A stretch of 64,000 nt of DNA, from contig CM114271.1 in assembly GCA_050084515.1 (NCBI GenBank), positions 46,190,001 to 46,254,000 of the forward strand, given 5' to 3'. A program made the translations under genes and the position numbers. Below the pieces are notes generated by a model. It was given only the letters and a program-made list of their open reading frames with translations. It made no database searches and was not told where the DNA came from. This document shows positions 6,148 through 64,000 of the stretch, piece after piece. Positions within the stretch are counted from its first letter, which is position 1; each line of letters begins with the position of its first letter. The stretch comes from Blasia pusilla (lineage: Eukaryota).

Positions 6148-6273
6148 GTTTTGAAGGCTTTGCACATTCCCGCGTTTGCAAGCTCCTGCACCCTACTAAC
6201 AGTGGGCGAGGTTTTGAAGGCTTTGCACATTCCCGCGTTTGCAAGCTCCTGCACCCTACTAACAGTGGGCGAG
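6148..6273. repeat. Perfect 63-bp tandem duplication
   Basis: gttttgaaggctttgcacattccc...cagtgggcgag at 6148-6210 and 6211-6273. Confidence 0.95.
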
Positions 6274-6660: not shown

Positions 6661-8389
6661 TGGCGCCGCTTCCGGGGATCATAAGCTTTGCTGGAGAGGG
6701 AGAGAGACACATAGGGAACCCAGGAGCGGGGAAAGAAGCCTCGTCTCCTAGAAGATCCAACCATCTAGTGCTTACTGAAGACCATCTACTATCTCTAGCT
6801 ATCCCCCTAAGACAATGGATGAAAGAAGATAACAATTGGTTTGCTGCATTGGTGCTAGAAAAGATAGAACAACTAATTAGTATTGTCAAAGAACCAGTCA
6901 TCGAAGGGTGCTTTGCCCATGAACGTCAGTTGTACTTGGTGATGACCCGGTACTTCTGTTTATGGGAGGAAAACCTGGCAGGTAGATTAAGAGCACCCTC
7001 ACACTTGTGTGGGAATTAGGAAGATCCAATTTCCCTCCATGGACCCCTACCTTGTGGGGATTGTGGGTGTGGAAGCAAGCTCCCGAATTCCATAAGGGCC
7101 TCATGGAAGTCTCCTGTCCCTCATCGCGAGATCAGCGAGCTGATCGACGCAATAAGCAACAAGAAGATCACACGTCTTGGAGACCGCCAGGGGTGTCCCC
7201 CAATCTTCGGCCTCGCACGAAGCCCAAGAGCAAGAGGGACAGGAATACGCTCCCCAGCAAGTCTCCTACCAATTCGTAGTCGGACGAAGAGTGAACCTTT
7301 GGGTACGAGGAGCCGACCAAATCAACCAGATCAGAACCGTTGCCTCCTCCCTCTTGAGCATCAAGCGTGGAACCCCAGCCGCAGAAATTTCCCAATGGCC
7401 AACACTAGAAAGACGTTGCTAAGATACCCCATGTTTGCAGGGGGACGGAGAGATGATGTTGACAACTTTGTGCTTGAATTTACCCATGTAGCTAAGGCTA
7501 ATGGGGAAGGCTCAGAGGAGGATTTGTTGCGAGTCTTTCCTGGCCTACTTAAGAAGCGAGCAAGCCAATGGTACAAGGGTCTGGGAGCGGATGTCACAAA
7601 AACCTGGAAAAGGGTACTAGAGGCCTTTCTTCCTGAGTTCCGTGACCTGGAGTTCGAGGACATGCTTCTGACAAAGCTTCGCCATCTGAAACGTAAAAGG
7701 AAGGAAACTCTCAAGGAATGCACCCAAAGGTTTCGTAGCCTTGTAAACAAACTTGAACACACAACTACCTCACAATTGGTAGATTGGTTTGTGTTGGGAC
7801 TGTCCAAAGGAATGGACCGGTACTGCCGCGAGGCCAACGAGGCCAACGAGATTCCCTGGTAGCAATCATAGCATCCGCAATGGCGTACGAGGCCTCCGAG
7901 AAATCCTGAAAAATGCGAAGACGGCGTCATCAACAACGAGGTTCTTCGCAAACTAGTTCTTCTTTCAGGACGAAGCGTCCTCTACAGACACCAGAGCCTC
8001 CACGGATGGCACGACGGAGTCCAGAGACTCCAAAGAGGACCAAAAATCCAAACGGAAGCGACGGACACGCCACCGCACTCCCAAGCGAGGAAGGACAGGC
8101 AAGCCTACCAATCATGGCCCTCAAAGGTCTGTCAGCCCAATACGAGGGGCATCGAAGAGGTCGGGCAAGTCTGCCATTGAAGAGTTAAGCAAACAAATGG
8201 CGGAATTAAAAGTACATATGGCGGCCCAGAAGGACCCCAGAAGACGACTAGGTCTGATGAGGCCCAACGTGTGGTGTAGTGCCTGCGAAACCCAAGGGCA
8301 TAGTGCTCATGAATGTCATACTCAAAGAGATTTACGTTGGATCGAGGAAGAACCAACGGCGGAAGAAGGGTGGTATGAAGCCCCCTTCA
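6661..8389 (+). mobile_element. Truncated Ty3/gypsy (Athila-like) internal region: PBS and decayed gag
   Basis: PBS-like TGGCGCCGCTTCCGGGGA at 6661, resembling the tRNA-Asp PBS of Athila-type elements; retrotransposon-gag-like ORF 7299-7862; zinc knuckle CSACETQGHSAHEC at ~8275-8317. Confidence 0.75.
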
Positions 8390-8867
8390 CAACTCACACA
8401 TATACATCGAGACCCCACATAAAAAATAAGAGAAAAAAATGGCACATCTGGCCTAAAACTCCACTCCTTAGTCTACATCGGCATATCGAGCCTCGTCCAT
8501 CCTATGTTGTTAGGGAATCCAAATACTAACATCCTGGTCTTAACTCACACACATGAGCAAGAATGGTGCTCTAACGGCCCAACATGAGAAAGATGAATTG
8601 GGGAAGCCATCTTCCTCCCTTATATAGGAGTGGGAAGAGCCAAAATGCTCTTCCCCTAGATATAGCAACCCTCTAGTAACTTGCGTGCACAGGTTACCAG
8701 GGGCGGATGACCTACTGAACAAGTCACCCGGTTGTGAAAGACCCCAAAAGGAAAGTTGTCAGAAACGACGTTCTTGACACAACGGGACGAAGTTACACTC
8801 AAAAAAGTCTGTTGGCTCTCTATGTTGCCACAATAGATCTCTACCTATCGGCTACTAAGATGTGACA
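8390..8867 (-). mobile_element. Solo A+B terminal repeat of the element-1 family (A 8421-8867, partial B 8390-8420)
   Basis: Reverse complement starts TGTCACATCTTAGTAGCCGATAGG like 11821 and aligns along repeat A; it then runs directly into tgtggggtctcgatgtatatgtgtgagttg, which matches the start of B at 26312. Confidence 0.85.
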
Positions 8868-10410: not shown

Positions 10411-12094
10411 GGTGTATTATGCATTTAATATCTTAAACACTCGTCTTGTGTGTTATAAAAGCTTGCGCTCAACAGTCACATTCTCATTAATGATTAGTAT
10501 CCAAACATCATTTATTGTGCTCCGTCTCATTTTAGCTATTTTGGATAAACCAATCTTGCATCTCTCTATTCTAGGTCTTTTGTCATCCCTCAACCTCAAC
10601 ACTCCTAAACATGGTGAGATACTAATCTAACCTCCTACTTCCCAACGCAAGAGAGCCATTAAAGACTTGAGATAGACTTTATTAATAGTCTAGGGTCTTG
10701 AAATAGTGCAAGTGCAACAAATGGTCCCAATTGCCCAATGGACCTCCAATAACTCTCTATCCACGACTTAACATATATGCTCTAGGTCAAGGTCAAAGGT
10801 TAGGGTCCATAATTGGACTACATAGAGTTGGCTTATTGTCAAAACTCTAATATCGCCCTCTTAATCCATCTCGTATCCCTAGTTCATCCCCCATGATTCC
10901 CAACGTGCTATCAGACTCTTTACTCCCTTAAACTTAAATTACGTTCTAGTAGCTAACCCACAATTCCTCTTTTGGTTTTAAGTCTTAAGTTATCACATCT
11001 CATACTTAGAAAGTATTTAGATTCTTCTTCTTTTTAGAATGCTTCTAGAATGACTACCTTGGAAAAAAACTAAGCCAACTTAATAGGCTTACCAACCTAA
11101 TATTCTATGTACTAGTCCCTCTAAGACTTCACATGCTCATAATTTGTAAATATTCCACCTATTAACAAGGTCCCAAAGGTGCGTTACTTTCGGATCACCA
11201 TTAAACTTGACTTAAGTGCATCACTAAGTTTAATCATTACTTCTCCAGTAATATCATCCCAAGATGGATTTGTCTATTTCACTAATCCTAGGGCAATCCC
11301 AAGCATTCGTGATCCAATGCTAAATCTTGTTCTAGTTGCTTATCCAAATTCAACCGCTCTCCTAAAATATGCCTTTGCATCTCCTCTTGACATACATCCT
11401 AATTAAGCTCATGGAGAACTATTCATTGTCAGGCACTACCACAAACAAATTGCATTCATTCAACTATGCATCAAATGTCCAAATCTATGCACAAATTTAT
11501 TGCAAAACTATCACATCCGAAATACAGTGGCTCTCAAGCCCCAAACTTCCAAGGGTGACAACTCATATCTGTAGCATCTCCAAGTACTAACACATGTGCT
11601 TCCTTTCATTACTACATTCAAAACCACTTTGCAAAGTCATGAGAGTTGTAACTTAGTTGAAGTACAATCGCAATACATCCTTATTGGACTTTCAAACTTG
11701 ACAATTGGATCCATAGATTATGACTGCAACCCGACTTAAAAGTTATATTTTCTTACACTCGTAGTCTAGTCATAATTTAGTCATAGTTCAATTGCCAAAG
11801 GCTTGCAAAGTTCTCTTCAATGTCACATCTGAGTAGCCGATAGGTTGAGATCTATCGTGGATAGGGCGTAGGAGCCAGCGGACTATCTTGGGTGTAACTT
11901 TGTCCCACAATGTCGGATGAGGTTGAGGATAGGTCCATTGTGTCAGGAACGTCGTTTCTGACAACTTTCATGTTGAGTTCTTTTACAGCCGGGTGACTTG
12001 TTGACAAGGTCACCCGCCCCTGGTAACCTGTGCGCGCAGGTTACCAAGGGGAGGGCTATTTTTAGGAGAAGAGCCTTTTGGCTCTTCCCAACCC

Positions 12095-12314
12095 TATATA
12101 AGAGAGGAAGATGGCTTTCCTAAGCCATCTTTCTCATGTTGGGCCGTTGGAGCACCTCCCTTGTATGTGTGTGAGCTAGGACTAGGGTGCTAGCGTCCGG
12201 ATTCCTTGATAGCACAGGGTGGACGAGGCTCAATATGCTGATGTAGATTGAGGAGTGGAGTTTTAGGTCGGGTGTGCCATTTTTATTACTCTTTATTTTT
12301 AAATGAGAAAGATG
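12095..12314 (+). promoter_or_regulatory. TATA box, predicted transcript start and self-priming PBS of element 1
   Basis: TATATAA 12095-12101. CATCTTTCTCAT 12126-12137 is the exact reverse complement of ATGAGAAAGATG 12303-12314, which lies just after repeat A1. Confidence 0.75.
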
Positions 12315-14179: not shown

Positions 14180-16660
14180 GTGTTCTTCCAGGGTTCGGAA
14201 GAACGGGGTAGTGTGAGCAGTAGTAGTGGTGTGATACGGAGTGGAGTGAGATACCGAGGGGTTACCAGTGAGGAGCTACCTCGACATCCATCCGTGGCTG
14301 GATCGTCATCACTCGACACTGGGTCTAGTGACGAGATCACAGACAGAGACAGTAGTACTTGGCAGGAGATGGACGACATGGGCCATCGGGGCATGCGTCG
14401 TTTCTTGGGTGCAGTGGGCACCATCGACTTAGATGATTTTATCCATGAGTTCGACACATGGTGCGACTTCCAGGAGATACGGACCCCGACACGGTTCAAC
14501 CCTTTCATGGCATGGAAGGGGTTGTTCCAACACTTGGAGGGTCCTCCGATGGATGATTACATGGAGTTTCGATCACTGTATTCAATAGAGATCGATGCTT
14601 GGAGGATGTATTGGGCTCCAGGGTATGTGTCCACTAGTGGTCGCGAGGCATATGATGGGATTGTGAGAGGAGAGAGACCCACACCATCAGCCTGGAGACT
14701 AGATGGAGAGGAGGGCAGTGAGACAGGCGATGTGGTAGAGACCTTTGGTGGTAGAGGGCCACCCAGCTTCAGCCCCACAGTGGAGTTCTTCCGACAGAGC
14801 TACCAGGGCGTACGCACCGACAAGTTGAAGAGTCTACAGGATTTTCAGCGACGATCGGGTGAGAGTCTAAGAGAGTCATTCACACGCATGAGGAGGCTGA
14901 TCATTGCTATGTATGGAGTAACTAAGGCGCAATCAGTCTAGTATTGGTACAGGGTTCTGGATCGAGAACTACGGAGGAGAGTCCGAGATGCGGTGCTGAT
15001 TCACACAGCGAAGCCCACATTGAAGATGGTCTTTGAGTTGTCTGAGCGAATTGAGCTCAATATGAGTGAGGAGCAGGTAGTGACCACTGGATTTTCTCGA
15101 GAGTTGACGGGTCCATGAGCGACGGTGACCCCACAGGTGCCACAGTGAGCACCAGTACCACGGGAGCGAGCCAGTGTGCCTAGAGAGCAGGGCGGGTACC
15201 GTGAGCCTATGAGGCAACGACCCGCACCTACATATGTTGCCCAACAGGGACCGATGTGGTCTTGTTGGACGTGTGGAGGGGCCCATAGGCAAAGAGACTG
15301 CCCACAGCATGGGAGAGGACCACCAACGCCTCCGATTGCTCAGGAGCCACAGAGGATGGCCCCACCACAGCACCAGTGTGACCATTGCCACAGATATGGT
15401 CACACTAGGGATAGATGTTTTGACCTTCGCCGAGGGGCACGTCCCAGGTAGGCCAAGGGCCCGGGGCGGCCGCCTGGAGGAGGTCGGGAGTTCTTCCTGG
15501 ATGTGGTGGTAGAGGACCACCACCACCATAGGAGATGGAGCGAGAGCACGAGCCGACACTTCTCTCACGCATCGATCGTTGGAGCAGAGGATTGCGCCAT
15601 GACGATGATGCGGCTTAGGAAAACGGAGCTGCGGCGGCTAGTGTGACTCGGCTTCTACCTCTTACCCGACCGGGTGAGATCTCGATATGGGATTTATGCG
15701 TAGTGCGGCCCAGGTTGAGGCGACTGCGGTGGTGACTCGGGTGTCTTTGCGAGAGGCACCGAGCCATCGAGAGGTGGAGTTGAGATTGACCCATCAGAGG
15801 GGACCAATGGGCGGCAAGCCAGGGTTCCACAGTCGTTCACATTGTCGGAGGCACTCCACACACCATCGATGGTGCCTCGACAACCAGCGGTGCCTACAGT
15901 TCAGCCACCTACATCGACGTCACGAGGAGTTGGAGTGACAACTCCTATGCCGGCTCGAGTGGAGTCAGTGTCGACCATAGTGTTGGAGGTGGCCACCAGA
16001 GTGAGTCAGACTCCACTATTTTCCGCCATAGAGTTGGCGACGTTGGGAGTTGGACCAGTTGAGGTGTTCCGGTTGGCCGCCACGTTGTGTGAGCCTGGAG
16101 AGATGACTGCTTCTTGTTCAGAGGTAGTTGAGGAGGTGGTGGAGTTGCCCTCAGAGCCGGTGTTGGGGACGTTCCCCACAGAGTCATGGCATGCGGCGGC
16201 GGCGAAGTTGGTAGATATGCCAGCTCGACCGGCCATAAAGCGAGCAGTGGTGACACATGGAGTAGTATTCTTGGATAACCGAGCCGAGTATTTCGCTTGG
16301 TTAGTCCGACGGGACAATATACCACCAGCAGCTGTAGCCCTACTTGATTCGGGGCGTAACCCTTGATGTTAGGAAGGCGGCCTGTTTAGCGTTGGGATTT
16401 ACGGAAGGCCGACATTGAGCCTTGTCCCTTCCAGATCTGAGACCTCGATTGGGGCGTATCACCCACTCGATATATAATCCGGCAGAGATTGTTGTCGAGT
16501 CGGCGAGCATGCGGCGGATAGTGCTATGATGCGCACACGTGCGATTACAACACTAGCTGAGTCGTACGATGTGTTGGTGGGGAGTGCAATGTTATATCCC
16601 CTAGGATTCATCCTTGACTTTTGGGAGGAGACCGTTGCTTATCGGCCAGGATTGCGTTCA
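14180..16660 (+). pseudogene. Element 1 gag and aspartic protease (disrupted)
   Basis: Gag-like ORF 14180-14941; knuckles CWTCGGAHRQRDC and CDHCHRYGHTRDRC (15260-15420); LLDSG at ~16340; YDVLVG at ~16565. Confidence 0.8.
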
Positions 16661-17049
16661 GGTGATGGCCGGATGAATCAGTTACCCGTGCAGTTTGTGG
16701 GACGAGGTGGTCGATCACGAGGCGAGTCTGTGACCACGTTGGCAGCTTTCACAGGTAGTGTTAAGTGGCCAAGAGAGTTGTTGGAGGGGAATGCACATGC
16801 GGAGGATTTCCCAGTAGCGGATAGTCCCACGGAGAGACAGGCCATGGCGGGTGTCTCTTCCCATGTTGGCGAGGCCTCTTCACCATTGTGGGGTACGACT
16901 CGGGAGCTACAGAGGAGTGCCGACGATCTCGTGAGGCAGGCGTGGAGTCGTGTTTTTATCCCAGAGTAGCGAGAGTCACGTGGCGATCGGGATTTTGGAG
17001 TGGAGACGTTGACCCCACTGGATATCACACCTGTTGTGTGGCAGTGCCC

Positions 17050-18020
17050 AGAGGAGGGTGTTAGGGTGTTAGATCTCTTCGGAGGGATTAGCACCGGATT
17101 GGCTGCACTATTGCAGGCGAGCATACGGGTGCATCAGTACCTTTATGTGGAGAGAGATGAGACTGCGCGGCGAGTATCATTACGTCACGTGGCGAGATTG
17201 GTCCAGAGATATCCTGAGTTGTTGCCGGTATCTGCAGTACGGGGATATCAGCATATGCTACTCGCCGACATCTCTTTGGTGGGGGCGTAGGATCTGGATA
17301 GAGTTGGCACCATTCATTTGGTGATTGCTGGATGGCCATGTCACGGTCATTCATCAGTTGGCTGAGGATTTGGATTGCAGGATCCGAGGTCAGGGATATT
17401 TTGGGAGATGCTGCGAGTAGTACAACACTTGCAGGAGAGTCAGATATGTTCTCCAGCGTACATTTTGGAGAACGTGTTGTTGGGAGACACTCGTGCACGG
17501 GATGACGAGTGTACATCAGGTGAGGTCCTGGTTGGGACCTGCTGTATTGTTAGATCCAGCGAGAGTTGGGTCACGTGCCCATCGTCCACGACTGTGATGG
17601 ACGAACCTGATTACCATCAGAGGTACTGAATCGAGCATACGGTGGAGTCCAGAGAGCACCACATCTCATAGTGGATGCTATTTTGGGCTCAGGGCGTCGA
17701 TCTCAAGTGGTGACACGGGATGATAGACCACCGTTGGCCATGGCCAATAGGGTGAGGGAGTTGAGGGCAGCCTTACCTACGTTGGTGAGCTTCCCAGCAT
17801 CCCATGCCTTTCGTCAGGGAGGGCCCGGCATGATTTGGGATGAGGTGACCGGAGCATTGGAGGAGCCTACAGCAGATGAGCACGAGCGCGCCATGGGGTT
17901 CACTACGGGCCTACTCTGGCGGTGCCGGGGATGATCGAGGCATCCAGAGGCAGTGTTGGGGCAGGCGATGGACCTCAACTGTCTCACATGGATAGTCAGC
18001 CTAGGTATGGCTGAGCAGAG
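17050..18020 (+). pseudogene. Element 1 DNMT3-like C5 cytosine methyltransferase domain (disrupted)
   Basis: Motif I VRVLDLFGGISTG; II YLYVERD; IV LVIAGWPC (~17318-17341); VI YILENV; VIII SRAHRPRL*WTNL; IX ERAMGF; X LGQAMDLNCLTWI, all in canonical order. Confidence 0.9.
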
Positions 18021-18148
18021 ATGGATGCGAGTGTCATCCATGCCATCACGTCCATGAGTTGGACCATTGCCTACAGGGTCTGTACAGGCATTGGCTGGGG
18101 GCAAGACAAGGAGAGATAGGCACCCATAGACTTCATGGGACGTCGTTC

Positions 18149-21100
18149 TATTGGATTCTCAACATCCACTCCTCTGAGCACCATTGATTTGATTGGCCCC
18201 CTTGTATGAGGAGAAGCCTAGATCGATGGTTCCGACTTAGACGTCGAAAGAGTCATAGTAATATGACGTAGGTGGTTTACGGAGTAGCGTTACTAGGTTT
18301 ATCTAACGAAGAAAAATATTTCTATTAATAGAAACGAAGAAACAAAGAAAAATAGGTAAAAACCCTAGTTTTTCCGAGTAGTCAAATAGTCGGGAGCCGC
18401 AGCGGTAGCGCATTCTCGTATGTTGAGTTATCTCGATTCGAGTTCCATCGAAGCTCTTCAGAAGCGCACGGACGGACTAGGCCACTTTGTATCTCTAAGT
18501 TTTGTAAAGATTTGTGATTTAGTCACTTTCGCTTTTCTCACATGGTATCCGAGCGCAAAGAGGTTTTTCCAAAGTATTTTGTATCCGGCGATCTAGTGTG
18601 TTTGCACAAAATCTTGAGAGATGGCTACTTCTTCTCGTCGATTCGTGCTCGCCCTCCTCCATTTGGGTGAAGGGAAGTTAGATGGGTCTAACTATTCGTT
18701 GTGGAAGTTCAAAATGAGAACTGTTTCGAATCATTTGAGATCCGGGAAACGGCCACGTGGGTCGATTCAAATCCACAAGCTAGTTTGAGTTCGCAAGTTC
18801 ATCTTCATCCGGGGATATCGATCATGTTGTATTATTGGCATGGAGACGCAAAACGCTGATGCTCTATATGCGATTGTCACGAATGTAATCGATTCTGTCA
18901 TGACTCTCATTCAACATACAACCACCTTCTTTGTTGAGGCGTGGAACATTTTGAAGAATCAAGATGAAACGAGGAATGAGACTCGGATTCAGAATGTGGA
19001 GAATCACTTACGTCAGAAATTTTCAGAAGGAGAAAGCGCGGAGCAATTTTTGACAAGGATCAAGAATCTTCAAGATCAGATGGCGTCCGTGGGAATTTCA
19101 AAGTCTAGCGAAGATTTGGCACGCCGGATTTTGCCTCCAAGGTATGACAATTTGGTCACTGCACTGAATACTCAAGTAAGACCCACGCCGCTTACTTTTG
19201 AACAATTTAGTGCAATGTTGGTAGAAGAGGAAATGCGCTTCAAAGCAAGAGAGGGAAGTGACGCAGAATTTACTGCCAACGTACAGAGAGGTAGAAATCA
19301 GGATTACAGTTCAAATGTCAAGAAGAAATTTCCAAGAAAAGCCTTCAAATGCTTTTATTGTGGTAAGCTAGGTCATCTTATCAAAGATTGTAGGAAGAGA
19401 AGTCAGGATGAGAAGAACGGTTGTTTAAGAAGACCTAAGAAGGAGTCTGGAAATTTTGTAGAACTGGGAGAACATGAAGTAGATGCTTGGGTAGCAATAG
19501 AAGAGTTCTGCACACAGGCAGAACATACCACTAAGACAAAGAGTGAAGATGCATAGGTGCTCGATAGTGGAGCATCTAGGCATATGACCAATCATAAGGA
19601 TTGGTATAGCTCCTTCTGACCTCTCTGAGAGCCCATCGTTATTCTTGTTGGGAATAATGCAAAGTGCCTGTAGAAGGGAAAGGCACAATTTCTTTAGTCT
19701 CACAAAAGGAGATGAAAAGAAGTTAAGCGATGTCTTTATGACGTACGAGTTGAAGCGAAATTTGATTTGATGGCGTGTATTATGTGATCGTGACCTAGAA
19801 GTTCGTTTCAAGAAAAGCTGGAGCGATCATTGAGGATGCCAATGGGAAATTAGTGGGTGAAGGTATACGACGTGGAAATATCTACGAGTTGCATGCTTTC
19901 ACGACAAGTGTAGGTCTGAGATCTTAGTAGCGATAAGTTGTGGCATGAAAGATTTGGTCACCTAAGCTTTCCCTTACTAAGTCGGATGCAAAAATCTGGC
20001 ATGGTTCTTTGATTTACCAACAATTTTCGGAGTGTCGGATACTTGTGAAGCTTGTATGATGGGGGCAACACCGACAACCATTTCCACAAGAGTCCGACAA
20101 TAGGGCAAAGGCTCCTCTAGAGTTGATACATCTTGACCTCTGTGGTAAAATGAGAAACGATGGCATTAGGTGGTTCTTCCTACTTCTTTTTAGTTGTCGA
20201 CGATTATAGTAGGAAGATGTGGGTGTATTTCCTTCGTGATAAGGCAAGTGCTTTTGGAAAATTTTAAGTATGGCACAAGCTGGTTGAGAATGAGACAGGA
20301 AAGAAGGTACAAAAGCTTCGCAGCGATCGAGGAGGAGAATTCTTATCAACGAGAATTCAACAAATATTTGGGAGAGCATGGAATCAGTTTACGATTAACC
20401 ACGGCACATACACCACAACAAAATGGAGTTGTTGAGCGTCGAAACCGCAAATCTGATGGTGGAGATGGCAAGATGTATGATGAAAGCAAAAGGTTTGTGA
20501 AGGATTTTGGGTGAAGTCATTATCTTGCCGTATACATTCTAAATAGAAGTGCTACCAAGTCAGTGCAAGGCATGACTCCTCATCAATCATACTCAGGTTA
20601 GGTACCATCAGTCCAACATTTCAGGACTTTTGGTAGTGAGTGTTTTGTACATATTCCTGAAGCATCGAGGACCAAGTTGGAGTCCAAGAGCAGGAAGTGC
20701 ATCTTTATGGGATACAGTGATGAGTCTAAAGCTTATCGCCTTTGGTGTCCTGAGGAAAAGAAGATGCTTGTGAGTCGTGACGTGGTGTTCCAAGAACAAC
20801 CTCGTCAAGTGGCGGATATCAGTGGTCCGTCCACATTATCATCAAACGAAGACATAACCCACCAGAGCACACCACAGATGTTTACACCAGATCATCAAGA
20901 AGAAGAATTTGGTGATGATTACAAAGAGCAACCTGCTCTTCCACTACGGTCGTCATACCCTAAGTGGATAAAGCAGCTCTTGGATGGTAAGGATCCACCA
21001 AAGAATCGATGAAGTTGTTACACATCCAAGGAGATCCAAGAGACTAGAGGAGCAGAATAGAGCTTCCGCACATCTCGTCAACATGGCCCTGATGACAGAG

Positions 21101-23034
21101 GTCTTGAAGGTGGAAGAGCCATCATGCTTGGATGAGGACCTGGCTCATCCTCAATGGAGAGAGGCCATGCAGACGGAGATGGACGCTATTCAAAGAAATG
21201 AAACTTGGACTTTGGTTGAAAAGCCAGAGGACAAGAAGATAATACGCACCAAGTGGGTGTACAAGACCAAGTACAAGTCGGACAGTACATTGGATAAATT
21301 CAAAGCGAGGTTGGTTGCACAAGGATGCTCACAAATCAAAGGCTTTGACTTCTATGAGACTTTTGCTCCCACTGCAAGGATGACAACCATTCGAATTGTT
21401 CTAGCGGTTGCAGGAACAAGACGTTGGCATGTATACTGTACGATGTGAAGTCTGCTTTTCTGAACGGGAGTCTCAAGGAGGAGGTATATGTTTCTCAACC
21501 ACCAGGTTTTGAGACACCCGGATCAGAAGAGAAAGTTTGTTTACTTCATCGAGCATTGTATGGGTTGAAGCAAGCCCCAAGGGTATGGTATCAACGAATA
21601 GATACATTCTTTCGAGAGAAGGGTCTCATGAAGAGTCCTTCAGAAGCAAATTTGTATGTGTTTTGCGAAGATGGGATGTATATATTGATAGTCTTGTATG
21701 TGGATGATCCGATCATCACAGGAGACCCTGAGAAGAAAATAGAGGAAATGAAGGGAGTGTTGGAATCTGAGTTTGAAATGTCGATTTAGGTCTTTTCACT
21801 ACTTTATAGGACTGGAAATTTGGCAACAATCAAATTCTATTTTTCTCTCTCAGCAGAAGTATGCTAGAGAAATCTTGAAGGCATTCGGGATGACCGAGTG
21901 TAAGGCGTGGTCTCGCCAATGGAGGTAGAGTTGAAACTCGATGGAGGATGTTTCACCATTGGTAGATGAAAAGATGTCTGAAAGCTTGTAGGCGTTTGAT
22001 ATTTTTGTGTAACAAGAGACGGACATTAGCTTTGTGGGAGTATTGAGTAGGTTCTCAACTAAGCCTCGTGAGAACCATTGGAAGGCGAGGATGCGTGTGT
22101 TGAAGTACATCAAAGGCACTATCGAGTACGGCATCACCTATGGAGCAGGGACGGAAATTTTTGTGACTCACATTGGGCAGGAGATTCAGATTCTCGAAGA
22201 TCAGTTTTGGGTTATTGCTTCTTGGTAGGATCAGGTGTGGTATCATGGGTCAGCAAGAAGCAACCTACAGTGGCTCTTTCTTCTACCGAGGCAGAGTACA
22301 AGGCGGCTTGTTATGCTTCTTGTGAAGCAGTATGGTTGAGATGGATACTAGAGGATATAGGAGAAGCACCAGAAAGTGCTACTGTAATGTGGTGTGACAA
22401 TCAGAGTTGCATTGCCATAGCACATAATCCTGTGTTTCATGCTCGTACAAAGCACATAGAGATCCAGTACCATTTTGTTCGTGAATTGATCGAGAGAGAG
22501 GTTTTGAAGTTAGTCTATTGTCCAACAGAGGATAACCGTGCAGACATCTTCACGAAAGTCTTGAGCGGAGATCGCTTCACCGACATCGAAGGGTCTTGGC
22601 ATAGGTCCAAGACAAGAGTCCACATGAGAATGGATATTGAGGGGGTATTGGATTCTCAACATCCACTCCTCTGAGCACCATTGATTTGATCGGCCCCCTT
22701 GTATGAGGAGAAGCCTAGATCGATGGTTCCGACTTAGACGTCGAAGGAGTCATAGTAATATGACGTAGGTGGTTTACGGAGTAGCGTTACTAGGTTTATC
22801 TAACCCAAAATTTTTCTATTAATAGAAACAAAGAAAAATAGGTAAAAACCCTAGTTTTCCCGAGTAGTCAAATAGTCGGGAGCCGCAGCGGTAGCGCATT
22901 CTCGTATGTCGAGTTATCTCCCAGTTCAGGTTCCATCGAAGCTCTTCTGTGAGCGCACGGACGGACTAGGCCAATTTGTATCTCTAAGTTTTGTAAAGAT
23001 TTCAGTGATTTAGTCACTTTCTGCTTTTCTCACA
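18149..23034 (+). mobile_element. Full-length but decayed Ty1/Copia LTR retrotransposon nested in element 1
   Basis: LTRs 18149-18542 and 22646-23034 (TA..CA); TSD CGTTC at 18144-18148 and 23035-23039; PBS TGGTATCCGAGC at 18543 (tRNA-iMet-like); purine tract before 22646. Confidence 0.96.
18621..22600 (+). pseudogene. Copia gag-pol polyprotein (frameshifted)
   Basis: CFYCGKLGHLIKDC knuckle; VLDSGASRHM protease; WHERFGHL, VDDYSR and QQNGVVERRNR integrase; LYGLKQAPR and LYVDD RT; TEAEY, CDNQS and ADIFTK RNaseH. Confidence 0.93.
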
Positions 23035-23173: not shown

Positions 23174-26100
23174 GTGTCCTCTCCGAGTGAGGTCACGATG
23201 GAGACTTGGGAGCATGTGATAGGTCTCAAGTTGATAGGAGGAGATCGACGGCGAGTTCATAGGTTTCTGAGAGGGCATTTCAATTGTTTTGCCTTCAGTA
23301 TGAGAGACTTGGGTACGCTGAAGGGTCCCGGGATACGGATTGAGTTGGCTAGTGATATGCCGATCTTTTGTCGACCCTACAGGTATTCTGATATGGAGCG
23401 AGCCTTGATTCAGAGCAGGAGTCAGGACTTGTTGGAGGCAGGACTTGTGGAGTTATCACATGGGGAGTATGCATCTGCCACAGTCATGCCGACAAAGAAG
23501 TATATGTATGGCAACTGGACGGATAGGCGGATGTGTGGAGATTACCATCCTATCAACCGACAGACGAGGTCAGATCGGTACGCTATGCCTACTCCTGAGG
23601 AGATCTTTGATGCGGTAGGGCATGCAAAGATCTTCAGTACTTTAGATCTCCGTGCTGGCTATCATCAACTTCCTATCAGGTTGGAGGACAGGGAGAAGAT
23701 AGCATTCTGGGGGATAGATCGGTTCGGGAGAGATTGCTTGTATCAGTGGCGGTTCTTACCATTTGGGTTGAAGAATGTGCCTGCAGAGTTTCAGAGAGTG
23801 ATGGATAGGATTCTGGCTGGCTTGGATTTTGTACAATGTTACATAGATGATATTCTTATCTTCAGTTCCATGGTTGAGGAGCATGAGCGACACTTGGAGG
23901 AGGTGTTTTGGCGATTGCCGTTACATGGACTGAAGTTATATCCAGGCAAGTGCAGATTCTTTCAGGAGCAGATTGAGTACTTGGGACACACCATATACCC
24001 GAGTGGGTTAGGCGTTCAGCAACGAAGGTAGAGGCTATTGCGCAGATTCCATGCCATACAGATGTGAGTCGAGTCCGAGCATTTCTTGGACTGGCGAACT
24101 TCTATCGACGGTATGTGAAGGGTTTTAGTGTGATCGCAAAGTCTTTGACCTTGTTGACGAGACTTGATCAGGTTTGGTTGTGGGGAGATGATCAAGAGCG
24201 AGCATTTCAGGAGCTCAAGGACAGGTTGACGTCCTCACCCATTTTACAAAGACCGGTTAGGGGTCGCCCATTCCAGTTACATACGGATTGGAGCATGTTG
24301 GGTCTAGGAGCAGTGCTTACTCAGAGAGATGACAAGGAGAGGGAGTTTGTTATGGCTTACGCCAGCCGATCGACCAACATTGCAGAGGCGAAGTACATCT
24401 CCTATGAGGGAGAGTGCTTGGCTGCAGTGTGGGTCGTGGCACATTTTAGGTGCTATTTATTCGGCAACCCTTTCACACTTATCACTGATCATCAGCCGTT
24501 GAGGTGGTTGATGGAGTCCGACAAGCTTACGAGCAAGCTTGCCAGGTGGGCTCTATTACTACATGAGTATGAGTTTGAGGTGGTTCATAGGCCAGGTCGG
24601 CTGAACCAAGATGCGGATGGGTTGAGTCGTAACCCATGTCCGAGTCAGAGAGACGACACATGAGCTCGATGGCACGGAGAGAGTGATGAGGAGATGGTGC
24701 CCGGTTGGCATGCATCTGCCTATCTTTGTTGGTTGACTATGGCAGGTCAGCCACAGGTGATGACTCCACTGGTGGGGTTGGATGATGAGTCTTTGGATCC
24801 GGAGGTTAGTGAGGAGGCGAAAGGTGGTCGTGATATCCATGATGACGTGGAGGTTGTGGAGTTCTTGCGCACTGGCATCATTGCGAGTACAGTGAGTGCT
24901 AGGGGAGCGGATCGAGATCCTCTGAGAGAGCCAAGAGGTTCAGGTGGGAGGGGACTCACATTTTGTGGGTATGGGGAGATGGTAGGATACGAGTGGTACC
25001 TCATCCTTCCCAGCGAGCACGTGTAGTGAGACATGTCCATGAGGAGTTGGGACATTTCGGAGTAAAGCGTACTTACAACTTACTCCAGGTTCAGTATTGG
25101 TGGCGCGGCATGCATACTGGAATACAGCAGTTTGTGGCCAGAGCATCCTTCAATGCTCCCACTCCGCAGTTACATCCTTTTCCGATTATGGGTTTAGGTT
25201 ATCGGTGGAGTTTAGACTTTGCGGGACTTTTGCCATTGACTGGGCGTCATCATAGGTACGTGTTGGTCATGGTGGAGCATTTCTCCAAGTGGATAGAGTT
25301 GGTGGCAATACCAGACAAGGCGAGCGAGGGAACAACTTATGCGTTTCTAGATCGTGTGCTTAGTCACTTTGGTGCACCGGCGGAGGTGTTGACTGACCAG
25401 GGTACCGAGTTCAGGGGAGAGTTTCAGGCCCTGTGTGATCAGGCGCCGATAGATCACCGCACCACGTCCAGAGATCATCCTGAGGCGGATGGGTTGGCGG
25501 AGAGAGTGGAGACGGTGAAGAGAGGATTGCGCAAGTATGGCTTGCAGCAGGGACAGTTGAGGGAGTGCGACCTACAGTTGCCATGGTTGACTATGGGTTA
25601 TCGCTTTAGTCGGCAGGCATCCTTTGCGTTATTTTCATCGTACTTTTTGCTCTTTGGGAGAGAGCCAGATTTACCTGCAGCGATTTGACGTGACGTGGAG
25701 GAGGTGTTAGATCTTGATGATCCAGATGTGTGGGTACAAGCATGTTCTCAGAGGGCAGAAGTTTTTCGTAGAGTTATGCCTATGGCCTTTGAGAACTTAG
25801 CTATTGCCCAACATAGAGATACATTGAGGTACGCGACCATTCGTGGAGGAGGTTATCGTCTAGGGATTAGGAGGTTTCATCATGGAGATGACGTGTATTT
25901 ACAGTAAGCGGCACCCACGACGCTAGATGTCACTGTAGGGCGCACGATCCTACGTGTGCGCGAGGTATTGCCGACCAGAGTCCTCATGTTGGAGGGACGG
26001 GATGGTATGGTTTGGAAGGATCATGTGCGCAATTGTGCGCCATGTCATCTTTGGAACGTAGATGGGACGGTGGATCCGAGCTTGGCAGTGGTACCTGCAG

Positions 26101-26240
26101 GCTTGAGGTGTATGTTGTGCGGATCTGCGAGGGGTGCAGCCACCATGTTGGTATGTGATGGTTGTTCTCGAGGCCTGACCCCCCCTCTTGATATGGTTCC
26201 CACGGGATGATGGATGTGTCCGAGATGTGTATAGGGTAGT
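23174..26240 (+). pseudogene. Element 1 RT, RNaseH, integrase and PHD finger (disrupted)
   Basis: RMCGDY, LDLRAGYHQ, PFGLKN, YIDD; TDWSMLGLGAVL, TDHQPL, DADGLSR; HEELGHFG, SLDFAG, TDQG, GLAER; PHD CMLC..VCDGC..WMCPRC with an internal deletion. Confidence 0.93.
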
Positions 26241-26899
26241 AGGTCATGTTAGAGAGATGTGATATTTTCTATCTGGAGTTGGGAGGATCCAACTGCCAGC
26301 TAGGGGGCGGTTGTGTGATCTCCATGTATATGTATGAGTTGATTTTTGTACATGTGTGGATCGATCCGTGTGTGGGGAAGATCGGTGTTGTATGGTGTAG
26401 ATGTGATGAGCGGTGTATGTTGTGTAGCGATATGTATGCGCACGACAGCTGTCACATCTGAGTAGCCGATAGGCCGAGATCTATCGTGGATAGGGCGTAG
26501 GAGCCAGCGGACTATCTTGAGTGTAACTTTGTCCCATGGTGTCGGATGAGGTTGAGGATAGGTCCATTGTGTCAGGAACGGCGTTTTTGACAACTTTCAT
26601 GTTGAGGTCTTTTACAGTTGGGTGACTTGTTGACCAGGTCATCCGCCCTTGTAACCTCTGGTCAACAAGTCTCAATAGTGGCAGACAATCCACACAAAAA
26701 TTGACTCACACCTACCTCGCAACAAAACTCAAAAATTTGCATAATAGTCGACTTACACAAACCCTCATTTACCATCTAGAAAACTATATCTCTACCAAAC
26801 CATCCGCTTCAAGAGAAATTTTTCAATTTGTACAATGGTCAATCAACACTTGATTGTGCAAGGCCTAAAGCTCCTCACAAAACCCAATATGATTAGTCA

Positions 26900-52740: not shown

Positions 52741-53057
52741 AACCGATGTGTCACGTCTTTTAGGATAGATCGATGGGATCTAATAGAGCGCCTTCATGAG
52801 TAGTGGAGGACACGCCCAGTAGGTCAAGGGTGACCTGCTGAGGCCCTTGGAAACCTGAGATGGCAGGTTTTCCCTTCGTTTCGGTTCATTTGGAGCCATA
52901 TTGAGGAACTTACTATTTTAGGTAAGTACCATTTTGAGTATATGATCGACTTACTATTTTTGGTAAGTGGCCTTTGACCTCCTACATCAGGTCAAGAGCC
53001 AAGGAGGTGACTTGGGAGAATAGGTTACCATGGAGAGAGCTTGGGAGAGGAGAGGGG

Positions 53058-53277
53058 TATACCTCAAGGAGAGAGAGCTTGAGAGCTCATTCTCTCTTTG
53101 TTGAACCTCTTGGCATGAGGCGGCGGAGCTATGGTACCTTGCCTTGTGAGTGTAACCCAAGCCTCTCATTAGGAGAGTGGGTTTGGTTTGACATGAGAGA
53201 GAGTGCACACCTTTGAGAGCTATGGTGTGAGATGGTGGAGAGAGAGATTGGATCTTACTTTACAAAGAGAGAATGAG
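53058..53277 (+). promoter_or_regulatory. TATA-like site, predicted transcript start and self-priming PBS of element 2
   Basis: TATA at 53058. CTCATTCTCTCTTTGT 53086-53101 is the exact reverse complement of ACAAAGAGAGAATGAG 53262-53277. Confidence 0.8.
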
Positions 53278-55079: not shown

Positions 55080-57400
55080 AGATGGAGGACCGGGGTAGAG
55101 GACCGCGAGGTTTTCAGGATCTGATGAGGGCACGATTGAGTTGCACGATTTTATAGCGAGTTTAGGAGTTGGTGCGACTCCCGGTAGGCCAAGAACTCTA
55201 GAGAGTTCAACCCATTTACAGCATGGAACGGTATGTTCCAGCATTTAGAGGGGGCGCCCATGGACGATTACCATGAGTTCTCTCAGAGATATGCATGTGA
55301 GATCGAGGCGTGGAGGCTCTACTATGACCCACATTATATGTCATGGACGGAGCCGTTCCCAGATGAGGAGGAGGAGTCAGGAGAGGCTACTACCTCTTCC
55401 ACTAGTGACGTTTTAGGAGGGTCACTCGACGACGGAGCAGCGATTGCACCGTCTAGTCGGGTTCGCCCCAGGTTCAACCCCGTGGTTGAGTTCTTTCTTT
55501 GAGTTGAGGGCGAGCTACCAGGGGGTACGGACGGAGAAGTTGCGGAGCATCCACGACTTCCAGAGGCGCTCGGGTGAGAGTTTGCGTGAGGCTTACACTC
55601 GCTTGCGCCGGTTGATCAACATCACTCAGGGGGTGACAGAGGCTCAGGCTATCTAGTCATGGTATGCGATGTTGGACCGGACCCTGCGGACACAGGTGCG
55701 GGAGGGGGTGCTTCTTATGAACACCTCCCCTACGTTGAGAGATGTTTTTAGGACCGCCGAGAACATTGAGCGCAACATGGCGGAGGAGAGCGTAGCCACC
55801 ATGGGTTCTGGGCGAGAGCAGCCACGATTGTCCGCACCACGTGCAAAGAACGTGGACTCCGAGATAGTTCGACTGTGGCACCACGAGCTCAGGGAGGATA
55901 CCGAGAGGCCGTGCCACAGAGACCTGCGCCTTCATATGCGGCTCAGCAGCAGCCGCCTACTATTACTTGTCGGTCATGTGGTGGAGCCCATCATCAGCGC
56001 GATTGCACTCGTCAGGGTCATGGACGTGTGCCTCAAAGATGGAGGAGGAGATGGTCTTTGCACCAGGAGGTTATCAGTGTGACTATTGTCGAGGTATGGT
56101 CATACACGCGCCAGGTGTTTTAGTTTACATCCTGAGTTACGCCTGGACCGAGGGCGAGAGGGCACCAGAGCGAGTAGCCGGTCCGGGTGGGCCTAGAGAT
56201 CGTGCTCCAGGTGGTCCCGTTGGGGGACGAGGAGCTGGAGTTGCCCGACAGGGTGGTGGAGTTGCCCATGGAGGAGGTAGAGTACCACCACCTAGACGCG
56301 CCGAGGGAGATGCCGGACGTGAGGCTGGGATGGCTGCTCAGATACAACAGCTACAGGAGCAGATTGCCGCTATGGCATTGAGGTTACCCGATGCCGGATC
56401 CGTGGCATCGACATCATATGGAGCAGCCAGAGATCTAGAGGATCTGGATGGATGTGCGGGGTTGCCCAGATGGAGGCCGCCGCAGTTGTGACGCGTGGAG
56501 CAGCCACAGAGTTGGATCCATAGCAAGGGGAAGCTAGTAGACAGACTAGGCTTCCTCAATCTTTCACGTTGTCCGAAGCGATGAGGACCCCATCGATGGG
56601 TCCTCATCAAAGTTCCTGGAGAGTTGGTAATGTTGTTGGTGTGCAAGCACGGAGGGCGATGGGAGAAGCGAGTGTGACGACTCCTATTGTTGATGCTCAG
56701 GAGGGGCATGTGTCGAGCACGTTGTTGGGGGCGGCCACCGTTGTGTACCGCACTCCTTTATTTTCTCGCTTCCGATGTTGTGCGTTGGGAGGTACGCCCG
56801 CCGAGGGGCTGGCCGCTTCACTATGTGAGCGAGTTGGAGTTCTGCATCACGTCGTGAGGTGATTGCAGAGGAGGTGATGGACCTGCCCTTGGAGCGGATG
56901 CCGGGCCGCCCACGTCATATTCATGGCAGTCGCGGGTCGCTAGGATGGCGAGATGCCTGCTAGACCCGCAATAGAGCGTGCCATGGCTTCTCCTGGTGTT
57001 GTGTTGCTGGATAACCGAGGAGAGGTCTTCGGTTGGTGAGTCCTCGGAGGTAGAGCTTTTAGTCCGCAAAGACGTCTTGTTGGATTCAGGAGCGCAACCC
57101 TTGATGTTGGGGAAAGCGTCATTGAGGATTGGGCTTGACGAGAGCCGATGTGGAGTGTTGTCCATTTCGGATCTGAGACATCCTTGGGTGGAGCGAGTAG
57201 TACCACAATATATCACCCGACATGAGGTCGTGGTGAGGATTCGCCGGGACATCCTGAGATGAGTCCGTAGCGCGCCAAGGCGATAGTGGATCGATCCGAG
57301 TCCTACGACGTCTTGGTTGGTGGAGCGATGTTATACCCGATGGGGTTTTCCCTGGATTCTTGGGAGGAGTCGTCCTATAGACCAGGATGGCGTCGGTGAT
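55080..57400 (+). pseudogene. Element 2 gag and protease (disrupted)
   Basis: MFQHLEGAPMDDY, FQRRSGESLREAY, CRSCGGAHHQRDC, LLDSGAQPLM, YDVLVG. Confidence 0.8.
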
Positions 57401-57779
57401 GGGCGCCTTAGCTCATTACCCGTTCGATTCACAGTGCGATGATCGAGCAACGGCCTGGAGAGATGGCGACCTTAGCAGCATTTAGCAGTGCCATCACTTG
57501 GCCTAGTGATTTGATTGAGGGACATGTCCATGCAGAGGATACTCCCGTTCTTGACATTTCTATGGAGAGGAGTGTTATGGTAGCCTGCATCATTCTGGTG
57601 GAGGAGAGGTGCACTGTGGGGCTCGGACCGAGGAGCTTCAACGATTGGATGATGCGACACGCGCACCGCATGGAGCGAGGCGTTTGCACCAGAGCGTGAC
57701 GGGTCTGAGGAACCCGAGGTAGCGGGGAGTGCTACGATGACACCCTTGGATACTACACCCATTGTGTGGTGTACCCGGA

Positions 57780-58731
57780 GGAGGGTATTCGAGTGTTAGA
57801 TCTCTTTGGAGGGATTAGCACCGGGTTAGCTGTTGTTTTGCAGGCAGGAGTGCGAGTACAGCAGTACTTATATGTGGAGAGTGATGATGTTGCAGGCGCG
57901 TCTCACTACGACATGTGGCGCAATTACGCCCTCGTTTTCCCGACTTATTGTGTGCGTCCGCAGATCTGGTACCGAGTTCCCTACCGAGGATATTTTGTTG
58001 TTGGGGGGCGCAGGACTTAGAGCGGTAGGGACCATTGATTTGGTCATTGCCGGTTGGCCATGTCAGGCCAATCGAGTCCGGACGAGGCGGCGGGTTGGTG
58101 ACACTCCATCCGGTTGTTTCGGGAGATGTTGAGGGTCTTACGGCGATTCTGGAGCACCAGTCTCGTTCTCCGGCCTACATTCGGAGAATGTGCCGATCTT
58201 AGAGACTCAGTCACGGGTCGTGACGAGTGCTCATCAGGTGCGTGCCTGGATCGGCCCAGCAGTGTTCTTGGATGCGGCGAGTGTAGGTTCTAGAGCCCAT
58301 CGCCCGCGTCTATGGTGGACCAACTTGGTGCCCCATGCGGTGTTATGGAGGGCGTATGCGAGAGTGGAGCGCCCCTCCCCTTTGTTAGTGGATTCCATTC
58401 GGATCCAAGTCGCCGATCACAGCGGTGAGGCACGATGATCGACCACCGCCGATCGTGGGTCACGGGGTAGGCAGGCCGTGGCGCCTTGCCCACGTTTGTG
58501 AGTTTTCCTGCTTCCTATGCATACAAGGAGGCCGGTCCTGGCTTGGTTTGGGATGACCAGGTTCAGCGGTTGGTGGAGCCCAACGCCGACGAGAGAGAGC
58601 GAGCGATGGGATTTCCCACAGGAGTGACGGCAGTACCATCAGTGTCAGAGGCATCACGACGCCATGTCTTGGGTCAGGCGATGGACCTGAACTGCTTGAC
58701 ATGGATCCTTAGCTTGGGAGTGGCTGAGTAG
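57780..58731 (+). pseudogene. Element 2 DNMT3-like C5 cytosine methyltransferase domain (frameshifted)
   Basis: GIRVLDLFGGISTG; YLYVE; DLVIAGWPCQ; ENV at ~58184; GSRAHRPRLWWTNL; ERERAMGFPTGVT; LGQAMDLNCLTWI. Confidence 0.92.
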
Positions 58732-59058
58732 TGTCGTATGAGATCGCGACAGATCACAACGGTTGCGTTGGTGAGCCCCATGCCTACCGAGACGGTGGAG
58801 GAAGTGGCTAGGGGCGAGACCCGAGGAGATCTACGCACCATGGGAGATCGGGAGAGACACCCTTGGACTTCTTGGGATGTTTTGAAGGTACGCAAGGAGA
58901 TGATAGCCACAGCATTGAGCGTGGTTTCGGGCACTGCACGTGGAGGAGATCAGAGTTTGCAGTTGGCTGTAGGAGAGCGGCCGAGTGTTGTTGTTCGAGA
59001 CGGGGTTGCACCATAGCAACCACCGATACCCGCGCCGGAGAGTCCTACCGTAGTCACG

Positions 59059-62000: not shown

Positions 62001-62125
62001 GTGCGGCCACGATGCTAGTATGTGATGGGTGTTCGAGAGGATGGCATATGGCATGTTTGACGCCACCTCTCACTAGGGTTCCTCATGGACAATGGATGTG
62101 TCCCAGATGTACATCGAGAAGGTAG
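59059..62125 (+). pseudogene. Element 2 RT, RNaseH, integrase and C-terminal PHD finger
   Basis: RMCGDYR, PFGLKNAP, YIDD; DWSMLGLGAVL, DADGLSR; HEELGHFG..CMVC, SLDFAG, GLAER; intact C4HC3 CMLC..CDGC..WHMAC..WMCPRC. Confidence 0.94.
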
Positions 62126-64000
62126 TTCTACATTCTGACTTGTGTCTATGACATGGATGACAAGGAGGCGACTAACGATGGGGCCACATGAGCACCCGGC
62201 CTTCTTGCTCTTAGCGTCAGAGATGTATGTCATGGTAGGTAGGGATAGATGGCTATCCGGAGTTAGAGGACCTAACCACCAGCTAGGGGGCGATTGGAGA
62301 TATTTTGGTTCTTCTTGTCTCGTTGTTTGGATGCCATGAGTTGCATGGGATCATGCGTGTTTTGTGTGTGTTCGGTGTGACAAATGATGTATGTTGTGTA
62401 GCGATGTGTATCGCACGGCGGTATCACGTCTTTTAGGATAGATCGGTGGGATCTAATAGAGCGCCTTCATGAGTAGTGGAGGACACTTGATGGAGGTCAA
62501 GGGTGACTGCTTTGAGGCCCTTGGAAATCTGAGATAGCAGGTTTCCCCCGTTCGGCTCATTTGGAGCCATATTGAGGAACTTACTATTTTAGGTAAGTAC
62601 CATTTTGAGTATATGATCGACTTACTATTTTTGTTAAGTGGCCCTTGACCTCCTACATCAGGTCAAGAGCCAAGGAGGTGACTTGGGAGAATAGGTTACC
62701 ATGGAGAGAGCTTGGGAGAGGAGAGGGGTATACCTCAAGGAGAGAGAGCTTGAGAGCTCATTCTCTCTTTGTTGAACCTCTTGGCATGAGGCGGCGGAGC
62801 TATGGTATCTTGCCTTGTGAGTGTAACCCAAGCCTCTCATTAGGAGAGTGGGTTTGGTTTGACATGAGAGAGAGTGCACACCTTTGAGAGCTATGGTGTG
62901 AGATGGTGAAGAGAGAGATTGGATCTTACTTTAATTGGAGATATTTTGGTTCTTCTTGTCTCGTTGTTTGGATGCCATGAGTTGCATGGGATCATGCGTG
63001 TTTGTGTGTGTGTTCGGTGACAGCGATGTATGTTGTGTAGCGATGTGTATGCGCACGACAGATGGTAACCCGGCATCACTCTATAAGGAGAGCGCTATGT
63101 TTGAAATTGCGTATAGGAATCTATGAGCACATTTAGGAGAGAAGGAGGTCCAAAGATCCCAAGAACTTTGGAAATCTCAATCTTAAGTGGGAAAAAGAAG
63201 AACCCAAAGTTCAAGCTTGAGAAGATGAACACATTGGGCCTTAAATTGAAAAGATTGGATCACCATGGAAATAGTTACAAACAAAATTCTAAACGTCCGC
63301 CATAGTCCTCCTCCTCTTCCTCCATTCCACTCCTCAAATTCCTCTATTTTGTGAGTCAAGCATGTGTTGATTATGAATTATCATGGATGAGTCATGATCA
63401 ACACATGCTTGATTTCCAAATAAGGGTATTTATATTTAATTCCATGCATGCTATATACTCCTTTTTAAAATTTACAATATGTTCTATTGAAAATATTTAA
63501 GTCATTCTTTATGAGCCAAAATAAAAAAATCTTAAAATAGCTCTTTTTATGCCATACTTCCAAAAAACCTTTGTGGATTTATGTCTCTTGACGAACCATA
63601 AGAAGTATGTAGGAAAATTATTGGAAACACTTAGCAAGAAAAGCATTATCTACCTAGTGAGATTGAATATGTAATTTTGGATAATTAAAACAAATATTAG
63701 AATTCCAGAAAAATACTTTAGATGTAAAAAAATATAAGAAGTTTTAAAAGAGAAATATTTTTTCCTGTTAACATTATTCACAAAATTATGCCACTTGATG
63801 GAGAAATACTTTTTATCATTTGATTGAGAGATAATGAGAGTTAGATCGATAAGAGATTTTATTGATGCATATTATTGCACAACATCAATTATTATTAATA
63901 TTTTAATTAAAAATTTATGATTTTATCATTCAAAAACCTTTGAGTTTGAAATTATTTTTCAATGAGAATAAATATAAATTTATTACATATTTTACAAAAA

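Follow-up and report, generated by a model that had tools for sequence, protein, structure and literature searches.

In the standard view, retroelements with LTRs and a DDE integrase insert as linear cDNA, and the tips of their LTRs are the substrates of the integrase. Circles in which two LTRs are joined count as dead ends, and only for foamy viruses is a role of such circles debated. At the circle junctions of retroviruses four nucleotides lie between CA and TG, and circle junctions of abutted ends are also formed by IS3 and IS30. Elements of the DIRS order are not known to produce a target-site duplication. Cleavage by integrase has been reported for the junction of HIV-1 2-LTR circles (PMC1905944, PMC4372172) and, with PFV integrase, for a palindromic LTR-LTR junction (PMC1180852). 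Self-priming of reverse transcription from a primer site complementary to the first bases of the element's own RNA has been described for the Tf1/sushi group and Tj1 (PMC4600332, PMC6317226). KnitGypsy-Dnmt3 from Klebsormidium nitens combines a gypsy-type pol with a DNA methyltransferase (DNMT), and its gross repeat layout is given in a figure legend (de Mendoza et al. 2018, PMC5890265). Compared by description, the elements analyzed here share with it the gypsy pol, and their relatives also carry a DNMT (domain PF00145). The text of PMC5890265 on KnitGypsy-Dnmt3 is silent on termini and target duplications, on the junction sequence, on a primer site or polypurine tract and on the mechanism. 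We found no other mention of a split-repeat layout in an integrase-bearing element in the literature on split-repeat or PHD-bearing bryophyte gypsy elements, although the supplements of PMC5890265 and PMC6317226 may hold structures; judged by titles and abstract openings, papers on split direct repeats and retrotransposons describe no integrase-bearing element either. Features that appear to be new are the termini and the spacer fixed at 2 nt, the duplications of the target, the repeat borders at primer site and polypurine tract, the variability of the joint and the occurrence of the clade in bryophytes.

The window, a stretch of 64,000 nucleotides from Blasia pusilla (GCA_050084515.1, contig CM114271.1, positions 46,190,001 to 46,254,000), contains two elements with split repeats A and B and part of a third copy (Table 1). 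An earlier note on this DNA had described a palindromic junction, GACA-GC-TGTC, at which the two integration ends of element 1 meet. The palindrome at 26444-26453 is indeed composed of the right terminus (B end), two bases and the left terminus (A start): ...GCGCACGACA closes B1 at 26447, GC occupies 26448-26449 and TGTCAC begins at 26450. The sequence GACAGCTGTC occurs only at this place in the window, with an expectation of 0.05 and at least one occurrence in 5 of 100 shuffles. The end of B, described before as nearly identical in both elements, is in fact fully identical over 34 nt, with exactly two matches and no mismatch in the window (26414-26447 and 63027-63060) and none in 100 shuffles, and the B repeats otherwise align poorly apart from the last ~38 nt, as had been seen by eye. 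Element 2 is bounded by the same termini, with TGTCAC at 52749, CACGACA ending at 63060 and GATG on either flank. Its internal junction (about 62410-62428), scored against the expected sequence of B end, GC and A start, contains two 1-nt deletions and four substitutions and is therefore called mutated, in agreement with the note. One correction concerns element 1: the B1 end and the A2 start are as described, but A2 is truncated at ~26660 and B2 is absent from the window, so that the right terminus of element 1 had to be deduced from its B1 and from element 2.

In self-comparisons, the A1 stretch 11821-12032 of element 1 matched A2 (26450-26660) with 92% identity, and the DNA upstream of A1 was unrelated. 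For element 2, A1 (52748-53262) and A2 (62421-62933) were 95.7% identical and B1 (62293-62417) and B2 (62934-63057) 94.5%; no B adjoining A1 of element 2 was found in the self-comparison of the window.

Table 1. Features of the split-repeat elements and of the nested element, in window coordinates
Feature	Position	Strand	Remarks
Third copy	8381..8867	-	flank, A (77% to element 1 A1), ~40 nt of B, break
Element 1 repeat A1	11822..12302	+	left integration end TGTCAC; TATA box 12095-12102
Element 1 predicted first bases of RNA (self-primer)	12126..12137	+	31 nt past TATA box; 12-nt perfect reverse complement of 12303-12314
Element 1 self-priming primer binding site (predicted)	12303..12314	+	directly 3' of A1
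Element 1 gag-PR-DNMT-like region, degenerate	14357..18021	+	tblastn with intact L001 ORF1 (residues 64-1260)
Nested Ty1/copia inside element 1, outside the gypsy family	18149..23034	+	LTRs, Retrotran_gag_2, RVT_2
Element 1 RT-RNase H-DDE integrase-PHD region	23201..26228	+	frameshifted
Element 1 polypurine-like tract AGCTAGGGGGCG	26298..26309	+	directly 5' of B1; motif also in element 2
Element 1 repeat B1	26310..26447	+	right integration end CACGACA
Palindrome GACA-GC-TGTC	26444..26453		B end, 2-nt spacer 26448-26449, A start
Element 1 repeat A2, truncated	26450..26660	+	followed by AT-rich unrelated DNA; without B2
Element 2 left target duplication GATG	52745..52748
Element 2 repeat A1	52749..53262	+	TATA-like motif 53056-53063; predicted RNA start/self-primer 53086-53101
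Element 2 self-priming primer binding site (predicted)	53262..53277	+	16-nt complement of 53086-53101
Element 2 degenerate PR/DNMT-like region, RT, RNase H, integrase, PHD finger	56950..62116	+
Element 2 polypurine-like tract AGCTAGGGGGCG	62281..62292	+	directly 5' of B1
Element 2 repeat B1	62293..62419	+	decayed end and junction at about 62410-62428
Element 2 repeat A2	62422..62933	+	begins TATCACG, a mutated TGTCACG
Element 2 repeat B2	62934..63060	+	abuts last base of A2 directly; CACGACA at end
Element 2 right target duplication GATG	63061..63064

That the ends abutting in the palindrome belong to an element with an integrase, as the note had supposed, is borne out by the coding regions. 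Both window elements contain RT, RNase H and an rve-type (DDE) integrase with an H2C2 domain, and Pfam detected a PHD finger in element 2. Pol follows the order PR-RT-RNase H-integrase, with an RT closest to that of Ty3. As intact reference we used L001, a related metagenome locus (976-8226) that is apparently intact, since L079 and L009 offered only decayed frames. Its ORF1 of 1369 aa, with aspartic protease and C5 DNA methylase (PF00145, E 1.8e-13), is separated by one in-frame stop from an ORF2 of 1047 aa with RT, RNase H, integrase and PHD finger. The L001 contig has the order X...pol-PPT-B-GT-A-PBS-X, a circular permutation for which either the assembly graph or a circular molecule could be responsible. 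Both window elements match the gag-PR-DNMT ORF of L001 in tblastn searches; Pfam found no DNMT in the window ORFs tested and nothing in the three ORFs tested from the gag-PR-DNMT-like region of element 1, but the match to L001 ORF1 covers the DNMT region. PF00145 is also present in many database relatives and the combination of rve and PHD in nearly all. The catalytic D,D35E residues (D684, D744, E779) and the HHCC residues (H617, H622, C652, C655) were invariant in all 12 aligned relatives. The nearest proteins are those of liverworts (Calypogeia fissa, 77%; Marchantia), mosses (Sphagnum) and Chara, and the nearest solved structures are Ty3 Gag-Pol (7q5b, E 4e-98) and, for the integrase, that of PFV (E 2e-21). 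The ORFs of L001 and of the window have no chromodomain at the C-terminus of the integrase, where the PHD finger is found instead.

By these features, the window elements are of the Ty3/gypsy type and probably fall into a DNMT-bearing clade of bryophytes and charophytes. They belong to Ty3/gypsy only in the broad sense, because they lack the identical terminal LTRs bounded by TG...CA: their left end is formed by A only and their right end by A.B, the second B stands before A2, and TG...CA encloses the whole element and the A.B unit, not a repeat common to both ends. Split direct repeats of the form A1-B1A2-B2 are instead the hallmark of Ngaro/PAT-like elements (scheme in PMC5890265, Fig. 1e), and the likeness extends to the internal junction of the ends and to the circular or end-joined intermediate that it implies. 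Insertion of a DIRS/Ngaro-type element through a circle by a tyrosine recombinase is nevertheless hardly conceivable here: the ORFs of intact L001 and of the window contain no tyrosine recombinase (PF00589), and the elements have a DDE integrase, TG...CA ends and 4-bp target duplications, besides a polypurine tract and a self-priming site at the repeat borders.

A scan of metagenome contigs matched the pattern 599 times, and 487 of these matches were confirmed as relatives, of which the best 80 (L001-L080), 39-66% identical to the query, were kept. Self-comparison of these best 80 of 487 detected a B1/B2 pair just past pol in 19. In L012, L034, L067, L072, L079 and L045/46 an A1/A2 pair was found as well, B1 touches A2 and the end of A2 touches B2, which gives the inserted layout A1-internal-B1-NN-A2-B2. 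With a repeat library, B was recognized after pol in 49 of the same 80 loci; 23 of them continue as B-NN-A and 26 have no A after B. Among the 23 loci that have A upstream of pol, none carries a B upstream of A1. Merging of identical insertions from several assemblies (L007/12/37, L033/34, L045/46, L073/75) left 18 distinct insertions, including window element 1. A spacer that varied among copies would, according to the earlier note, have spoken against the junction, but it measured exactly 2 nt in all 18 (GC in nine, AC in six, GT in three). AC and GT are, in our reading, probably single transitions of GC in a CHG context; since intact L001 has GT, the two central bases are not strictly fixed. 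At B1-NN-A2 the integration ends, TGTCAYG at the start of A and CAYGACA at the end of B, stand head to head. A perfect 4-bp target duplication was found in element 2 (GATG) and in 7 of 16 assessable loci; one of the other nine is perfect if a mutated first base is allowed, three match in three of four bases and five show none. Identities of the A pair and the B pair track each other (90.7 and 92.3% in L012, 83.2 and 84.7% in L034, 89.1 and 88.4% in L067, 84.3 and 79.6% in L072, 88.1 and 88.7% in L079, 95.7 and 94.5% in element 2), indicating that both pairs were probably identical at insertion. Moss copies (L007, L012, L044, L068 and others) carry two to three times a unit of ~15 nt (CGTCACGACAC plus 4 nt) in the last ~45 nt of B. 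These units are possibly integrase binding sites; the window copies are without them.

Both copies in the window are old and damaged, with frameshifts, a nested copia element and a truncated A2, and their layout might be suspected to result from an error of the assembly or from a secondary rearrangement such as a nested insertion or a tandem or solo LTR next to a truncated element, with an accidental palindrome. We regard this as very improbable, because the layout and the 2-nt spacer recur in the 18 distinct insertions, in lineages only 39-64% identical in pol, because primer site and polypurine tract coincide with the repeat borders, and because both RNA and DNA reads span the junction.

The borders of A and B coincide with sequences expected to start the two cDNA strands. 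The 9-16 nt that follow A1 directly repeat a site inside A in reverse-complement form. At the end of A1, a perfect complement of at least 10 nt was present in 12 of 26 elements compared to 4 of 156 control windows, and in 11 of the 12 its target lies 26-34 nt past a TATA motif. The primer pair exists in four unrelated sequence versions (in the moss group, L001, window element 1 and element 2), which indicates covariation. No clear pair was recognized in the L005/6/10/11/45 subgroup, and inspection by eye of the sequence past A1 or B1 did not reveal a tRNA-type primer site starting with TGG. The position of the putative primer site directly past U5 and its complementarity to the predicted RNA start resemble those in the Tf1/sushi group. 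Tf1-type elements differ in having ordinary LTRs, with integration ends at the LTR termini, and a chromodomain; the elements described here have their integration ends inside the predicted reverse-transcription LTR, and a PHD finger. At the other border, a G-run directly precedes B1 in 18 of 20 elements (...CTGGGGGGGG; AGCTAGGGGGCG in the window), L033/34 being without a clear one, and B2 begins at the same base as B1. We read this G-run as the putative polypurine tract. A primer site directly past A1 places the start of the minus strand at the last base of A, and a polypurine tract before B1 places the start of the plus strand at the first base of B. Applied to these starts, the established scheme of retroviral reverse transcription predicts a canonical cDNA of the form B-NN-A ... 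B-NN-A.

From these borders a replication cycle can be proposed. The RNA would start ~30 nt past the TATA box in A1, and its first 10-16 nt would fold back onto the site past A1 to prime the minus strand, as in Tf1, while the plus strand would begin at the G-run directly before B1. Canonical reverse transcription would then produce a linear cDNA whose LTR is B-NN-A, so that the sites for the integrase are the templated palindrome inside each LTR. The order found in inserted copies, A1 ... B1-NN-A2.B2, equals this predicted cDNA with the left B shifted to the right end. As an inserted copy would thus be a circular permutation of the cDNA, its formation would require that the last base of A be joined to the first of B. 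The joint might be made in a 2-LTR-type circle or else by end-joining, once a double-strand cut has been made and the DNA inserted. The integrase would open the palindrome upstream of gag by a cut after CA on each strand, and the other palindrome would stay as the internal junction and template the next round. On balance, we consider it probable that the palindrome is the internal B1/A2 junction of an inserted form A1-PBS-gag/pol-PPT-B1-NN-A2-B2 that arises by joining of the cDNA ends and opening of the palindrome by integrase. What an inserted copy retains is, by definition, the junction that was not cut, and the likely role of this junction is that of the template copied into each cDNA LTR. 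If the second, identical palindrome were cut, the permutation A.B-NN-A-...-B would be expected, which was found in none of 23 loci; as explanations we can offer only the timing of LTR completion or a faster loss of this form. Canonical strand transfers alone were considered as a source of the A2.B2 joint and rejected, as by reasoning no model gave the observed order.

The parallel to the circle junctions of retroviruses, IS3 and IS30, drawn in the earlier note, holds for the abutted ends and the short fixed spacer. In both cases two ends of a DDE enzyme form a palindrome, and cuts after CA would give processed ends; judged by the geometry of the sequence, the products of a staggered cut after each CA would be CA-3'OH ends that carry 5' overhangs of 2 nt. 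The parallel fails where the origin of the palindrome is concerned, which elsewhere is made when the ends are joined but here is inherited, probably copied from a template into each LTR, and present in integrated copies, whereas the joint that would form from the cDNA ends is the non-palindromic A.B. The spacer also differs, with 2 nt here compared to the 4 nt of retroviruses.

Of the 49 loci in which pol is followed by B, 26 lack A2/B2, which also counts against the proposed cycle. These loci may be B1xB2 deletions or a direct product that the cycle does not need. The integrase could instead act on the two outermost sites of the linear cDNA, trim B on the left and A on the right and insert a unit-length A-...-B, with the split-repeat form as a rarer by-product that happens to be the only one able to found new copies. 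This is the form of the 26 loci, several of which have intact termini and perfect 4-bp duplications (L006 TACA, L009 CCAA, L063 ATGG). We still consider this course of events unlikely, because a unit-length copy has no 3' A, which the first strand transfer needs, and so is unable to replicate, because a simple deletion between B1 and B2 (repeats of 56-314 bp, typically 115-180, at a distance of 300-500 bp) generates such forms as well, and because the split-repeat copies would require end-joining all the same.

Within the inserted copies, the joint that looks newly made is A2.B2 and not B-NN-A. It is exact in six distinct copies, has one additional nucleotide in L018 and L073/75, lacks two nucleotides in L067 and L033/34, and in L024 ~150 nt of B2 are missing, unlike the B-NN-A spacer, the length of which never varies. 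A variable joint next to a fixed spacer would favor end-joining combined with cleavage of the palindrome. At the joint of element 2, a 1-nt deletion at 62933 was present in 8 of 16, 8 of 19 and 9 of 13 RNA reads and in ~20% of the DNA depth. Differences of +1 and -2 nt are also typical of end-to-end template switches, and the reverse transcriptase might produce the A.B joint by a switch that leaves A at its last base and enters B at its first, which would yield longer-than-unit or concatemeric cDNA with the integrase using the outermost sites and would make ligation by the host unnecessary. To us this appears improbable, since a switch at the other end would yield the permutation that was not seen, and the large deletion of B2 in L024 is better explained by end-joining or by a later deletion than by a switch. 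We therefore continue to favor joining of the cDNA ends followed by opening of the palindrome.

Transcripts of the family contain the junctions. In three RNA runs with the same species label, the depth over the element was 2-140 in one orientation (sense) and 0-9 in the other, and the flanks of element 2 reached 0-0.17 in the orientation of the signal. Since RNA reads were accepted from 90% identity, these values describe expression of the family, not of this copy. RNA reads spanned B-NN-A (from 63058/63060/63061 to 62422/62424/52749, 3-35 reads per run) and the A2.B2 joint, and DNA reads crossed the junction as well. The listed RNA read starts, 62484 and 62790, do not coincide with the predicted start at 62757.

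The split-repeat layout, common to a clade from mosses, liverworts and green algae, suggests that the DNA copy is joined end to end and re-opened at a palindrome of this kind before insertion. In this clade the inserted ends lie elsewhere than the borders that the putative primer site and polypurine tract define. The elements are partly Tf1-like in their priming, partly Ngaro-like in their repeat topology and possibly IS3/IS30- or foamy-virus-like in their integration. More tentatively, and with somewhat less conviction than for the cycle itself, we propose that this streptophyte clade has moved its integration sites to the middle of the reverse-transcription LTR, where they would form an inherited palindrome. 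Every insertion would then require joining of the cDNA ends, in effect a 2-LTR-type circle, and re-opening by integrase in the manner of an IS3/IS30 circle, an obligatory step that would be convergent with DIRS/Ngaro elements. If this is true, joining of cDNA ends and cutting of an internal palindrome are part of a normal cycle, which would provide a natural system for integrase cleavage of abutted ends, and the split repeats of tyrosine-recombinase elements would be linked to a DDE element by convergence. The layout also explains why LTR-finder pipelines would miss or misreport such elements in bryophyte genomes, and it is relevant to a clade with a DNA methyltransferase of its own.

Several observations concern other parts of the window and of the read data. 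The third copy (8381-8867) may be either a solo A.B or a truncated element. A DNA joint from 52748 to 63075 was considered as the empty site of element 2 and set aside, as it is 10 nt off and weak (two contigs, 21 nt on the shorter side). The LTRs of the nested Ty1/copia element (18149-18542 and 22646-23034) are 92% identical overall, with sub-stretches of 98-99%, and the element also contains a zf-CCHC domain. Just past truncated element 1, a short integrase-like fragment of another element lies on the minus strand (26790-27074; 37% to residues 693-787 of L001 ORF2), followed in AT-rich DNA by a foldback-like inverted repeat of ~710 bp with 88% identity (28102-28808 and 29180-29892). Directly upstream of element 2, the minus strand has long open frames of 210, 439 and 353 aa without Pfam match (48719-51956). 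Near the start of the window there are an array of a 64/128-bp unit (431-1137) and a tandem repeat with about three copies of a 351-bp unit (4149-5221; 84-96%). In RNA reads only, 1061 bases of the window between 59184 and 60246 were skipped, with five other letters in between (5, 14 and 7 reads in the three runs), and no DNA contig is listed with this skip, which could represent a deletion variant of expressed copies or a splice. In DNA run X1, the word depth across 52300-63500 was 130,000-265,000 in A and B, which is 5-10 times as high as in the internal region (10,000-60,000) and is consistent with many solo A.B copies or with better-conserved ends.
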